From Escherichia phage BEU50, in sequence record OM632671.1: DNA of 64,000 nt; one strand, 5' to 3'. Position numbers and translations under genes: made by a program. Positions 35,837-49,117 of the stretch are shown here, piece by piece; position 1 is the first letter of the stretch; every line of letters starts with the position of its first letter. A model generated the notes under the pieces. It was not told the origin of the DNA. It did no database searches and was given only the letters and a program-made list of their open reading frames with translations.

Positions 35837-36097
35837 ATGAAAATGTATCAAGAATTTATCATTGAAGCAGATGCCAAAGGTCCTAAATTTAAAGTTAAAG
35901 CTTTCATTGGTGATGCGGAAGACTTTGGCTCATTAAAACGTAATGGGTATTCTTTCTTAGGTGGCGATGGTAAAGAAATCAACACCTATGCAAAACGTAG
36001 TGAAATTGCTTATGTTGTAGCAAGTCCTAAAGTAGATGTTGACGATATTGGATATGATTTTAACAACTTCGGAATTATTTCTGGCGGTAAAGCTTAA
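35837..36097 (+). CDS. internal-protein-like protein with capsid-targeting sequence
   Basis: 86 aa; begins MKMYQEFIIE. Confidence 0.55.
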   Translation: MKMYQEFIIEADAKGPKFKVKAFIGDAEDFGSLKRNGYSFLGGDGKEINTYAKRSEIAYVVASPKVDVDDIGYDFNNFGIISGGKA

Positions 36098-36160: not shown

Positions 36161-36475
36161 ATGAAAACGTATAAAGAATTTATTGCAGAATCCGCCAACC
36201 AACGCGTTGAAGGTGGTTATATTTGGATTGAACAAGTTGAGCCACCGAGCCGCACTTCTACAGGTAAATGGAAAATTACTGTTGACGGTCCTGGTGGTAA
36301 ACGTAGGACTCTTAAAGAAATTAATGGGTACTATGAAGAAGCTCTTTCGGATGCAGGAACTTACATGATGCAAATCATGATTAAAAACCCTGAAAACCGT
36401 TTTGCAGCTAAAGTCTTCCGTCGTATTGGTAATAAACTTTATGATGCATACTCTAAAAACTTCCCTAAAGAATAA
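36161..36475 (+). CDS. internal-protein-like protein with capsid-targeting sequence
   Basis: 104 aa; begins MKTYKEFIAE. Confidence 0.6.
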   Translation: MKTYKEFIAESANQRVEGGYIWIEQVEPPSRTSTGKWKITVDGPGGKRRTLKEINGYYEEALSDAGTYMMQIMIKNPENRFAAKVFRRIGNKLYDAYSKNFPKE

Positions 36476-36500: not shown

Positions 36501-36830
36501 ATGAAAACATATCAGGAGTTTATCACTGAAGTTACATTATCTGCGGAACAGAAAGCTGCTATCGAAGAAGGTAAAAATCCCAAAGTAACATACAAAGTAA
36601 ATAGTAAAGGCGTTTTTGATGGCTTGGTTCAAGACCCTGAATTGAAAAAAGCTCTTTCTAAAACTAATGCGTACTTTGCTCCTAAATTTAACACAGCCGG
36701 TGTACTTATTGGATTGGATGTATTCAACTCTAAAGGTGTTCTATCTAATGCCTTTGGTTATGCCGCTAACAAAATTACCAAAGCCGCATGGGAATCCAAT
36801 ACCAAACAAGCTCAAAAGCCTAGAGTATAA
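36501..36830 (+). CDS. internal-protein-like protein with capsid-targeting sequence
   Basis: 109 aa; begins MKTYQEFITE. Confidence 0.6.
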   Translation: MKTYQEFITEVTLSAEQKAAIEEGKNPKVTYKVNSKGVFDGLVQDPELKKALSKTNAYFAPKFNTAGVLIGLDVFNSKGVLSNAFGYAANKITKAAWESNTKQAQKPRV

Positions 36831-37543: not shown

Positions 37544-37848
37544 TGACCACTATTGAAGTTTTTGAGTATTGTTATAACAGCCCAGTATGCAATAAAAGGG
37601 CTCTTGTAGAAAATTATGAGATTTACCATTTTAAACCTAAACGATATCGTTTGACTAAAGGTCCGTTCGCAGGGCAGCAGGTTCTTTGTACTGCTCCTAA
37701 TGCACGGTTGATGACTAGTATTCCGCATTTCAAAATGGAATTTATTGATGGGCCATTTAAGGGATTAATCACTCAAAGTTTAATGGCGTTTAATTCCGAC
37801 CCATTTTTGATTAAAGAAAAATCTTGGATAAATTTATTTTCTAATTGA
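37540..37848 (+). CDS. hypothetical protein
   Basis: 102 aa ORF, start overlaps the upstream stop. Confidence 0.5.
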   Translation: MMTTIEVFEYCYNSPVCNKRALVENYEIYHFKPKRYRLTKGPFAGQQVLCTAPNARLMTSIPHFKMEFIDGPFKGLITQSLMAFNSDPFLIKEKSWINLFSN

Positions 37849-37854
37849 GGTTAT

Positions 37855-38217
37855 ATGAAAGCATATCAAATTCTTGAAGGTGCACATAAAGGCACTATTT
37901 ATTTTGAAGACAGTACTCAAGCCCGGATTATTGTCTCTAAGACTTTTAAAGAAGACGCTATTGTAGACCCGGAAATTTTCTACGGTTTGCATGCTCGTGA
38001 AATTGAAATTGAACATCAACCTAAAGTTAAAATTGAAGGTGGTCAACACCTGAACGTTAACGTTCTGCGTCGTGAAACTCTGGAAGATGCAGTTAAGCAT
38101 CCGGAAAAATATCCGCAGCTGACCATCCGTGTATCCGGATATGCAGTTCGCTTTAACTCTCTGACTCCGGAACAGCAGCGCGACGTTATCGCTCGTACCT
38201 TTACTGAGAGTCTATAA
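37855..38217 (+). CDS. grcA: autonomous glycyl radical cofactor (GrcA/YfiD-like; T4 Y06I-type)
   Basis: C-terminal glycyl-radical motif [29 protein letters not shown]; C-terminal about 60 aa match recalled E. coli GrcA; CTG/CGT-rich codons in 38040-38217. Confidence 0.85.
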
Positions 38218-38441
38218 TGGCTAAATTGATTATAGAAGGGTCTGAAGATGTTTTAAAATGTTTTGCCGCCTGGTTTAGTTGCTCAGGCGAGCAATCATTC
38301 ATTGAAGCATTTAGAATGGGTGATATTACTGGAAACTATCCGACAACTGATATCACTGTACATGGATATGGTATTAATGAGCCTATCCAATTGGTCGAAT
38401 ATGACCTTGCCACCGATGAGGAAATTCCTTATGTCGATTGA
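38217..38441 (+). CDS. hypothetical protein
   Basis: 74 aa ORF, ATGA-coupled to the grcA stop. Confidence 0.5.
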   Translation: MAKLIIEGSEDVLKCFAAWFSCSGEQSFIEAFRMGDITGNYPTTDITVHGYGINEPIQLVEYDLATDEEIPYVD

Positions 38442-38697
38442 AGACATCAAAGGCTACAAGCCGCATACCGATGATAAAATCGGTAAAGTGAACGCTATTA
38501 AAGATGCTGAAGTCCGTCTTGGATTGATGTTTGATGCTCTGATTGAAGAAGCATATATCTTGAAAGAAAATGAAACAGAGCAACAAACCAAAGAAGATAT
38601 GGATGCAGTGCAGGCTCTTAAGTATGCTAAGCAACATCTAAAAGAAGCCAGCATGTGGGCATGTCGTGCGGTATTTCGACCTGAGGAAAAATACTAA
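38431..38697 (+). CDS. hypothetical protein
   Basis: ATG at 38431 in frame with the track ORF 38263..38697; overlaps the upstream ORF end. Confidence 0.45.
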   Translation: MSIEDIKGYKPHTDDKIGKVNAIKDAEVRLGLMFDALIEEAYILKENETEQQTKEDMDAVQALKYAKQHLKEASMWACRAVFRPEEKY

Positions 38698-39983: not shown

Positions 39984-40327
39984 CCAAAATGTTGGCTTTA
40001 ATAGTTGGCTTGGTTTCATTTAACGCTCTTGCTAATACTACATATACTGATGTAACGGAGTATACAAACAGAACGGCGTCTGATTATTGTGGTAAAAGTC
40101 AAGAGTGTAAAGTAGATTTTTCACAAAAATTGTTATATGCGTATAAAGACGGAGAAAAAGATGGGGCGTCTAGTAGGTTCAAGGCGTCTACCTTAATTAA
40201 AAGATACTATAAAAAATGGCAAATATTAGAATGCTCTGTGGCGGAACCTAAAGATAAGGCAGCATGCAATTCTATGGTGGACCGTCTAGTTGACTCTTAT
40301 ACTAGAGGACTTGCAGCAAGTGATTAA
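39980..40327 (+). CDS. predicted secreted protein (signal peptide, 4 Cys)
   Basis: MTKMLALIVGLVSFNALA signal-like N-terminus. Confidence 0.55.
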   Translation: MTKMLALIVGLVSFNALANTTYTDVTEYTNRTASDYCGKSQECKVDFSQKLLYAYKDGEKDGASSRFKASTLIKRYYKKWQILECSVAEPKDKAACNSMVDRLVDSYTRGLAASD

Positions 40328-40784
40328 AAACTATATCAAGGGCGATATTGTCGCCCTGTTTTCTAAAGGTAATAATATTGCTCATGGGTGTAATTGTTTT
40401 CATACAATGGGCGCCGGTGTAGCAGGCCAATTAGCAAAGGCTTATCCAAAAATTCTGGAAGCCGATAAACTTCAAACCGAATTCGGAGACAAGTCTAAAC
40501 TCGGGACTTATTCGGTTTATGAAAAATATTTTAAGACCCATAAAGCTTATTGCTTTAATCTTTATACACAGTTTGAGCCGGGACCTAATTTTGAGTACTC
40601 TGCTTTAATGAATTGTATAATAGAATTAAATGAATTCGGAAAGAATAAGATAATAAAGCCTGTAATTTATATGCCTAGAATTGGTGCAGGTATTGGTGGT
40701 GGAAACTGGGATATCATCGAAGAGATTTTAGATACGTATTCCACTAAACTAGAAATTGTGATTGTTGATTGGGAACCTAAATGA
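40320..40784 (+). CDS. macrodomain protein, TARG1/DarG-like (predicted ADP-ribose processing)
   Basis: Motifs YIKGDIVALFSKGNNIAHGCNCFHTMGAGVAGQL and MPRIGAGIGGGNWDIIEEI align with recalled human TARG1/OARD1; start uncertain (GTG 40320 after SD gagga, or TTG 40290). Confidence 0.7.
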   Translation: MIKNYIKGDIVALFSKGNNIAHGCNCFHTMGAGVAGQLAKAYPKILEADKLQTEFGDKSKLGTYSVYEKYFKTHKAYCFNLYTQFEPGPNFEYSALMNCIIELNEFGKNKIIKPVIYMPRIGAGIGGGNWDIIEEILDTYSTKLEIVIVDWEPK

Positions 40785-48121: not shown

Positions 48122-49117
48122 ATGAGCATTACATCTGATGCGGTAAAACATGAAATTAACGGTTTATGTGCTTCACAGATTAAAGTGTGGTTTAAAGACC
48201 ATAATGATCGCAGAGCACTTAATTATGAGCAAATTGCTATCCAAGTTCATCAATTACTGACTAGTAAATTTGATTTTCATATGCCGTCTGAAATCTATAC
48301 TAATCTGCCGCGAGCGCTTATTAAAGCGTGTAAAGGTTACGGAAAATCAATGGCTGATGGAATCTTCAGCGCGCTGAATAAACTTAACGTTCTGTCGATG
48401 ATTAACTCTAACAACATCCTGCGTAATCTAGGACGTACTGATTTGTTCGGTCGTGAACAGTGTAAAATGCCTTTGAAATGGATTGTTGCTCATCTTAACG
48501 AGAACCAAACACGTTTTATGGCCGTATCAGCACGCTTACAAATGGGTCTAGATCGTCAGATGAACTTTAAAACTCATCCATGTTATTCAGGTTCAACAGA
48601 CTTTTATAAATGTGAGCTTCAAAAGGTTGGTGGCAAAACTGTCTTAGTAGTTCGTGTAACGTTTGAAGGACGACGTCAAGGATATTTTAACCTAATCGGC
48701 TCTGGTCTTAAACATTGTGGATTTATCGACGAAGTTGATATCAAGCGAGACGGCACTGGATATCGTATTGGATATGTTTGTACTCTTAAAGAAGAGATTT
48801 CAGGACCAGCTCCAGGACTAAAAGATGTTAGATATAAAGATGAGCTCGTTGAAGAAATAAAAGAAGTTGAATATGATATCAACCAAGAAGATGCTCTTAA
48901 AGACCTTATTGATGAACTAAACCAAGACGTTATTCCGGTTCAGAAATTTGAATCAAAACATGCTGAGCAAATCAAATACTTTGAAGCTTTGATTAACGAA
49001 CTTAATGTAACTATTCAACAGACCGACGATGAAATCTCACGATTAGCAGGCTTAAACGGTAAAAATAAAACAGAACGAGCTAATCTTATTCAAGTAGTAA
49101 AACTTCTTAAGGAATGA
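48122..49117 (+). CDS. hypothetical protein with C-terminal coiled coil (tandem cassette, 1 of 3)
   Basis: 331 aa; no recognised domain. Confidence 0.6.
   Translation: MSITSDAVKHEINGLCASQIKVWFKDHNDRRALNYEQIAIQVHQLLTSKFDFHMPSEIYTNLPRALIKACKGYGKSMADGIFSALNKLNVLSMINSNNILRNLGRTDLFGREQCKMPLKWIVAHLNENQTRFMAVSARLQMGLDRQMNFKTHPCYSGSTDFYKCELQKVGGKTVLVVRVTFEGRRQGYFNLIGSGLKHCGFIDEVDIKRDGTGYRIGYVCTLKEEISGPAPGLKDVRYKDELVEEIKEVEYDINQEDALKDLIDELNQDVIPVQKFESKHAEQIKYFEALINELNVTIQQTDDEISRLAGLNGKNKTERANLIQVVKLLKE

Follow-up and report, generated by a model that had tools for sequence, protein, structure and literature searches.

The DNA considered here is a 64-kb stretch of the genome of Escherichia phage BEU50 (OM632671.1; 64,000 nucleotides (nt), hereafter the window), a portion of a T4-like genome of the genus Mosigvirus. 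At positions 37855-38217 its plus strand contains an open reading frame (ORF) of 120 amino acids (aa), the orthologue of T4 vs.6 (protein Y06I), which encodes a GrcA/YfiD-type autonomous glycyl-radical 'spare part' protein. The gene is a mosaic: its 5' half is diverged and of phage type, while most of its 3' half is nearly identical, at the nucleotide level, to grcA of the Escherichia coli chromosome. Orthology with T4 vs.6 is given both by sequence and by position, the gene being located between the vs.7 and vs.5 homologues and upstream of regB, in the syntenic order vs.8-vs.7-vs.6-vs.5-vs.4-vs.3-regB-vs.1-vs that is found in T4. The window copy is 100% identical to its counterpart in the Mosigvirus phage a20 and 93.4% identical in nucleotides to T4 vs.6. 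The proteins share 113 of 120 residues (94%); all 7 substitutions fall in the N-terminal half, and the radical domains of window Vs.6 and T4 Y06I have identical protein sequences.

The assignment of the product to the GrcA type relies on several comparisons. The Pfam Gly_radical model (PF01228) matches window Vs.6 with 67.2 bits (cut-off 22.2), and the TIGR04365 model of GrcA matches residues 18-120 with 159.5 bits, E. coli GrcA itself reaching 233.9. The match with the nuclear magnetic resonance structure of E. coli YfiD/GrcA (PDB 6OWR) had an E value of 1.4e-42 and was decisive. Matches in the PDB were restricted to residues 25-127 of full-length YfiD and to residues 696-759 of PflB, and did not include the catalytic body of PFL. 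Window Vs.6 has the size and layout of the stand-alone small proteins, about 120-130 aa in which the radical domain comes after an N-terminal half. An RVxG motif, RVSGY, is placed near the C-terminus (38128-38142, plus strand); it aligns to the G102 region of YfiD in 6OWR and contains the radical glycine G95 (codon GGA, 38137-38139). According to Wagner et al. (2001), as reported in PMC8683613, a PFL spare-part function has been validated biochemically for two proteins, T4 Y06I and YfiD, and Y06I is activated in vitro by the PFL-activating enzyme (PFL-AE) and restores oxygen-cleaved PFL. By analogy, window Vs.6 would receive a radical on G95 from the host PFL-activating enzyme and dock into oxygen-cleaved PflB, restoring its activity. 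Docking would thus replace the lost C-terminal radical domain of the host PflB.

The host-identical tract extends over 175 nt, at 38033-38207 of the plus strand, and corresponds to nt 200-374 of E. coli grcA with one mismatch (174/175, 99.4%). It encodes the structured glycyl-radical domain, with phage residues 60-118 equivalent to GrcA 67-125. Immediately upstream the nucleotide identity to E. coli grcA drops to about 46%. The lone mismatch, at 38139, is a synonymous change (GGA for GGT) in the codon of the radical glycine and is private to the window copy, and T4 vs.6 is identical to E. coli grcA at 178 of 178 nt. At the 3' side the tract ends ten bases before the end of the gene. This edge (38208-38217, plus strand), made up of the last three codons and the stop, reads GAG AGT CTA where E. 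coli has GAA AGC CTG, the differences being synonymous. Hence the protein identity continues beyond the tract, residues E61-L120 of Vs.6 being the same as GrcA 68-127 (60/60), in agreement with the preliminary description of this gene, in which about 60 C-terminal residues were taken to be identical to those of E. coli GrcA.

The composition of the gene changes at the same place. The 5' half (codons 1-59, 37855-38032, plus strand) has a GC content of 0.35 and contains no CTG codon, whereas the tract has 49% GC. Segments of 58 codons from the other ORFs of the window have a mean of 38%, and the tract is in the top 0.3% of them. All five leucine codons of the tract are CTG, a codon that accounts for 8% of leucines in the genes of the window (tract in the top 0.03%), and no other 58-codon segment of the 64 kb equals the tract when CTG and CGT/CGC counts are combined. 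The GC content at third codon positions is less extreme (0.41, top 5%). The preliminary description had noted this contrast and had placed the GC- and CTG/CGT-rich DNA at 38040-38217; the composition was right, and the limits have to be moved to those of the tract. It had also regarded the N-terminal half as divergent and phage-like. This is accurate as to GC content and nucleotide identity, although the half is a colinear GrcA homologue and not an unrelated sequence. Its 59 residues align with the 66 N-terminal residues of GrcA at 30% identity (E=1e-5), being 7 residues shorter. As a separate observation, the only other run of five CTG codons within 58 codons in the window occurs in a 331-aa ORF at 48122-49117 (plus strand). 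This run was considered and set aside; it has no match in E. coli DNA and is probably due to chance.

The colinearity of the N-terminal half, together with the fact that the GrcA model matches from residue 18, indicates that the gene is a diverged grcA homologue of long standing, part of which was overwritten, and not a fusion. The place of the junction is also meaningful in terms of the protein. Residues 1-60 of YfiD are disordered and aid binding to cleaved PFL and radical installation, while residues 61-127 carry the radical and reproduce the fold of PflB 693-759 (PMC8683613). Since the tract begins at GrcA residue 67/68, the host-identical DNA corresponds very nearly to the folded docking domain and the diverged DNA to the disordered half.

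Identity of the proteins does not account for identity of the DNA. In a comparison set of grcA genes from 80 species of Enterobacterales and Pasteurellales, hosts that share all 60 residues with E. coli reach only 85-92% DNA identity with it across the stretch of the tract. The phage tract is closest to E. coli grcA and then to that of a cryptic Escherichia species, after which there is a gap. Synonymous divergence (dS) from E. coli in the tract codons amounts to 0.046 for the cryptic Escherichia species, 0.41 for Citrobacter amalonaticus and 1.06 for Salmonella enterica; T4 differs at none of the 44.5 synonymous sites and the window at 2 of 44.5. The dS of the phage tracts from E. coli (0-0.045) is therefore to be compared with 0.41-1.06 between host genera. 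Moreover, when the whole 64-kb window was compared by megablast with 5,426 complete E. coli genomes, the grcA tract was the sole match (38033-38225). Because the identity exceeds that of hosts with the same protein, and because the match is the only one in the E. coli genomes, the comparisons indicate that the tract is a recent copy of E. coli grcA and not a product of protein constraint. The sharp breakpoints, with 99.4-100% identity inside and about 46% outside, an identity above that of vertical orthologues, and the donor-type composition within a different recipient are all features expected of gene conversion. The direction is from host to phage, since codon usage and GC content of the tract are host-like and grcA in the hosts, which in E. 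coli resides in the order ung-grcA-eamB, shows ordinary vertical divergence.

The mosaic is widespread. E. coli grcA is matched at 95% identity or more in 638 phage genomes, T4 included (about 640 Tequatrovirus and Mosigvirus genomes), and among the matches listed the match always starts at grcA nt 199-202. No phage match in this search of phage genomes reached 80% of grcA. A scan of metagenomes for the exact pattern of the phage-specific junction gave five contigs, one of them ending within the gene. Thus T4 and about 640 genomes have the same junction, and the mosaic is not a peculiarity of BEU50. T4 Y06I had been taken as a known GrcA homologue, correctly, and as an ordinary comparator, which the shared junction and the 178/178 match contradict. 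An identity to host grcA no higher than that of T4 had been named as a result that would speak against a host origin. Literally this is what was found; it is uninformative, T4 being itself mosaic, and the host origin stands.

Variation within the gene was analyzed in 21 copies of the E. coli-type gene taken from isolates, IMG/VR and metagenomes, in which carriers of C at the polymorphic site described below were deliberately included. In the 5' half the copies form two haplotype groups that follow the genus, a Mosigvirus type, to which the window belongs, and a Tequatrovirus type. Of the fixed differences between the groups, 9 lie within nt 1-178, the one furthest 3' being at nt 170, none lies within nt 179-353, and a single one follows at nt 360 (Fisher p=0.0035), clade-specific differences starting again at gene nt 358/360. 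Between the groups dS falls from 0.44 in the 5' half to 0.054 in the tract, the latter value being equal to the diversity within groups. Taken together, the phage tracts have a consensus equal to the E. coli sequence. Deviations from it are chiefly private third-position changes, which implies that synonymous changes are tolerated but do not become fixed. The limits of the stretch devoid of phage population structure lie within 8 nt (5' side) and 5 nt (3' side) of the limits of host homology. This coincidence is directly accounted for if each lineage copied from the host; a patch moved between phages would have to stop at the limits of host homology by chance.

A further indication is provided by the T/C polymorphic site at 38073 (plus strand; gene nt 219, grcA nt 240), at which the window has T. 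In E. coli, T occurs in the type of strain 1190/IAI1 and C in the K-12 type, each in approximately half of the 5,426 genomes, and this is the only common E. coli polymorphism found here in the tract. The exact K-12-type 61-mer is present in 66 of 619 phage genomes. Both bases occur in Mosigvirus and in Tequatrovirus, C being found on more than one Tequatrovirus sub-haplotype. The shared polymorphism would fit several copying events from different host alleles. The phages also vary between T and A at tract nt 282, T being the base of one sampled cryptic Escherichia species.

The junction recurs in Jiaodavirus, a genus of Klebsiella phages, where the tract has 56% GC and encodes Klebsiella-type residues. 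As reference, Klebsiella chromosomal DNA in the ung-grcA context was used, located by means of Klebsiella GrcA proteins. The tract of Jiaodavirus KEN37 is 97.1% identical to Klebsiella grcA, including an exact run of 134 nt, and 87% identical to E. coli, a value equal to the divergence between the E. coli and Klebsiella hosts. In the search of the phage database, 88 phage records match Klebsiella grcA at 90-98%, starting at nt 202, and phages of the E. coli group match it at about 85-87% among the matches listed. Jiaodavirus has thus drawn on a second, clearly independent host source at the same junction, which brings the donors to at least two. Independent recurrence, as in Jiaodavirus, and loss of population structure inside the tract only (0 fixed differences, against 9 and 1 on its two sides) are again the traits expected of gene conversion. 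The derivation of the 3' half from the host, as first proposed for the window gene, is in this way borne out by the sharp breakpoint, the host-specific nucleotide identity, the host codons and the Klebsiella-type tract of Klebsiella phages.

Other lineages differ. In Slopekvirus, Pseudotevenvirus, the Karamvirus-like CC31 group on Enterobacter, Krischvirus, Gualtarvirus and T5-like phages the DNA of the domain reaches only 77-86% identity with the closest of the 88 host genes sampled, and exact runs to host grcA in their copies measure 20-35 nt. Enterobacter phage CC31 and 22 related records of Enterobacter, Cronobacter and Klebsiella phages have a radical-domain variant of their own (…LTKETLEDAVQHPEKY…TFTKEM), and the DNA of the vs.6 homologue in this group is about 80% identical to any sampled Enterobacter grcA, that is, no recent host copy is seen.

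Two further observations concern catalogued viral contigs. GrcA-like genes were also noticed in a group of low-GC phage contigs of about 30-150 kb (L110-L115 and L121, with IMGVR_UViG_3300008607_000007 as L113). In the genes of the L113 group the last ~65 nt include a 56-nt exact match to Haemophilus grcA (L067), the remainder being about 80% identical, so that these may be Pasteurellaceae phages that carry a short patch of host origin. A contig of 19 kb catalogued as viral (IMGVR_UViG_2706794630_000006) was examined as a possible converted phage gene of Yersinia type (91% to Yersinia) and discarded; its gene is a complete bacterial grcA (MITGIQITKA...), and the contig probably represents flanking host DNA or a fragment that was binned wrongly.

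Taken as a whole, the data make it probable, in our judgement, that vs.6 is an old phage homologue of grcA whose radical-domain DNA has been replaced by that of the host through repeated host-to-phage gene conversion. The phage lineage would have carried its own diverged grcA homologue for a long time, and in Tequatrovirus and Mosigvirus the DNA of the structured C-terminal domain would have given way to a copy of the grcA that E. coli has today. The presumed route is homologous recombination (gene conversion), with host chromosomal DNA serving as template during infection. T-even phages have very active homologous recombination, including recombination with cloned homologous DNA in the cell. 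Fragments of the host chromosome arising in the infection might be used as templates for repair synthesis wherever homology suffices. At the 5' side the exchange would be limited by the collapse of phage-host homology near the border between disordered and folded domains. The radical domain is 75-85% identical even in old copies and the disordered half is not, which would produce the common 5' limit. At the 3' side there is no homology beyond the stop codon, and the last few codons would be left unconverted. Replacement would have taken place more than once, giving an E. coli tract in the genera that infect E. coli and a Klebsiella tract in Jiaodavirus, while others keep decayed versions. As for the benefit, the domain must suit host PflA and PflB, and an exact host copy would never be worse than a drifted one. 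More speculatively, the phage copy might keep PFL working after oxygen exposure while T4 shuts off host transcription, and maintenance of PFL might sustain formate, the reductant of the phage anaerobic ribonucleotide reductase.

Alternative histories of the tract have to be weighed against these data. The radical domain is extremely conserved as a protein across hosts and phages and the codons of grcA are typical of highly expressed host genes, so an ancient capture of grcA, with a 3' half frozen by strong selection on protein and codons for high expression, deserves consideration. Nevertheless it is very improbable: bacterial orthologues with identical residues differ at 8-15% of bases (dS 0.4-1.06), the phage copies tolerate synonymous singletons, other phage lineages whose domain is almost the same reach only 72-86% DNA identity with E. 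coli or Klebsiella grcA, and the tract of the Klebsiella phages uses Klebsiella codon choices. That the 3' halves of E. coli and Klebsiella grcA were instead acquired from T-even phages is scarcely credible, even if nucleotide identity alone gives no direction, as the tract is host-like in composition and codon usage and an outlier in the phage, the host tracts diverge vertically among enteric genera with 5' halves unlike that of the phage, and the phage tract matches the host genus that each phage genus infects. Contamination by host DNA, whose reads are common in phage preparations, or an assembly chimera in the phage record would have to produce the same in-frame junction in more than 600 independently sequenced genomes, T4 among them, and in metagenomic contigs, as well as a 3' edge that has diverged and, within the tract, synonymous changes private to phages; the probability of such an artefact is practically negligible.

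A single recent capture of the E. coli tract by one T-even phage, followed by spread across Tequatrovirus and Mosigvirus through phage-phage recombination in mixed infections and with the Klebsiella tract as a separate event, has more in its favour, and we regard it as unlikely. T-even phages recombine readily with one another, one junction is common to all ~640 genomes, the variants of the tract radiate in a star-like pattern from the E. coli sequence, mostly by synonymous changes that are private, and the diversity of the tract within clades is not much below that of the 5' half. Spread of a single patch would nevertheless demand that the patch end within 8 nt and 5 nt of the limits of host homology, and yet nt 170 and nt 360 stay fixed by clade. 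It would also leave to be explained that the T/C polymorphism, common in E. coli, is present in Mosigvirus as well as in Tequatrovirus, in the latter on more than one sub-haplotype, and that Jiaodavirus reached the same junction independently from another host.

Several observations weigh against repeated conversion by the host, or restrict it. The TIGR04365 score of window Vs.6 is not above the GrcA equivalog cut-off of 170 bits (TIGR04365, IPR011140), a shortfall that is attributable to the diverged N-terminal half. The invariant 5' junction is equally expected from a single origin. The T/C site could reflect recurrent mutation, one phage having G at that position, and a rare E. coli allele (strain N12) has no variant in common with the sampled phages. 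Within clades the synonymous diversity of the tract is 0.05, about half that of the 5' half (0.07-0.10), which implies that conversion is infrequent or rare, and one event per genus could suffice. Members isolated on Yersinia, Salmonella or Citrobacter retain an E. coli-type tract, so that the tract would be slow to follow the isolation host. Several lineages living on similar hosts have no recent host copy, and conversion would accordingly be episodic and not universal. The haplotype analysis comprises 21 sequences, among which the carriers of C were chosen. Finally, T4 degrades host DNA and uses modified cytosine, and the use of host fragments as recombination templates would have to operate under these conditions. 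The stronger form of the proposal, that vs.6 evolves in concert with the host chromosome, the grcA of the infected cell acting as a recurrent repair template that re-synchronises the gene to the most recent host species or allele, is offered as a tentative possibility to which we give somewhat less than even chances.

The immediate surroundings of vs.6 are those of a compact phage cluster. A likely ribosome-binding site, GAGG (37847-37850, plus strand), read from the sequence, overlaps the TGA stop (37846-37848) of the vs.7 homologue, and the start context TGAGGTT(T)ATATG is common to T4 and Salmonella phage Lv5cm. The stop of vs.6 overlaps in turn the start of vs.5 (TAATG). In a promoter and terminator scan of 36.4-39.5 kb the numbers of sites were no higher than in shuffled sequence. 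In Lv5cm (MZ150757, L181 150-335) the first ~150 nt of vs.6, including the ribosome-binding site, are tandemly duplicated, with a truncated additional 'GrcA' ORF (MKAYQ...) directly 5' of the intact gene, a duplication that is either real or an assembly artefact.

Further features of the neighbourhood were recorded. Three adjacent small paralogous ORFs on the plus strand, at 35837-36097, 36161-36475 and 36501-36830, each begin with MK(M/T)YQEFI, a start resembling the capsid-targeting leader of T4 internal proteins. The annotation of phage a20 names the counterpart of the first an 'internal head protein' and those of the other two 'hypothetical protein'. Two genes 3' of vs.6, at 38431-38697 (plus strand) and within the listed ORF 38263-38697, is the T4 vs.4 homologue, whose counterpart in phage Mizar is annotated as anti-CBASS protein Acb2. 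At 40290-40784 (plus strand) is the positional counterpart of T4 tk.4, which is annotated with an A1pp macro-domain phosphatase motif and is called 'phosphatase' in phage a20.

The gene class and its biochemical role are already known from T4, and the window adds no new function. In the searchable literature no report of nucleotide identity between T4 and host grcA was found, only citations of the biochemical work, with the key papers outside the search and an earlier notice possible. As far as could be checked, the tracking of the host genus by the tract and the copying on more than one occasion are new. A segment of a host chromosomal gene, 178 nt long, is present without any mismatch in T4, the virulent phage that has been studied best. 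If confirmed, vs.6 would lend itself to simple tests of two questions, the frequency with which lytic phages and host chromosomes recombine and the reason why a 'spare part' has to match the host enzyme exactly; the tract might also serve as a marker of the recent hosts of a phage lineage. Should the gene indeed evolve in concert with the host, the 175-nt tract would be a natural recorder of recent host history, and direct natural evidence that a strictly virulent phage, one that degrades host DNA, still recombines with the host chromosome wherever the two share about 100-200 bp of homologous sequence. The tract should be allowed for in tools that detect host-like DNA in phage genomes or take phage grcA as a marker. 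A typing scheme based on quantitative PCR employs phage grcA as a marker of Straboviridae (PMC12845203, Table 3); cross-amplification of the host gene by this assay was considered and is not expected, its forward primer lying in the phage-specific 5' half.

Among known systems the nearest is T4 Vs.6/Y06I itself, which has in common with the window copy the gene neighbourhood, the junction and the host-identical tract. The window copy differs in having a Mosigvirus-type 5' haplotype and the private synonymous change in the codon of the radical glycine. With E. coli GrcA/YfiD it shares the last 60 residues, 174 of 175 nt, the RVSGY loop and the fold unit 61-127 that replaces PflB 693-759; it differs in its location, in a phage cluster and not at ung-grcA-eamB, and in an N-terminal half that is 30% identical and 7 residues shorter. 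The GrcA-like genes of Slopekvirus, Pseudotevenvirus, the CC31 group, Krischvirus, Gualtarvirus and Tequintavirus belong to the same family and have the same architecture, usually with an MKAYQI... N-terminus, and a conserved radical domain. A broader parallel is psbA of cyanophages, segments of which have been exchanged with host psbA, an instance of the host-phage mosaicism of auxiliary metabolic genes. In both cases a virulent phage carries a host-type metabolic gene, segments of which bear signs of recombination with host alleles. The patch in vs.6, however, is a sharply bounded, domain-sized piece of 175 nt inside a much older, strongly diverged homologue; the model phage T4 has it too, and its type changes with the genus of the host (E. 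coli or Klebsiella).

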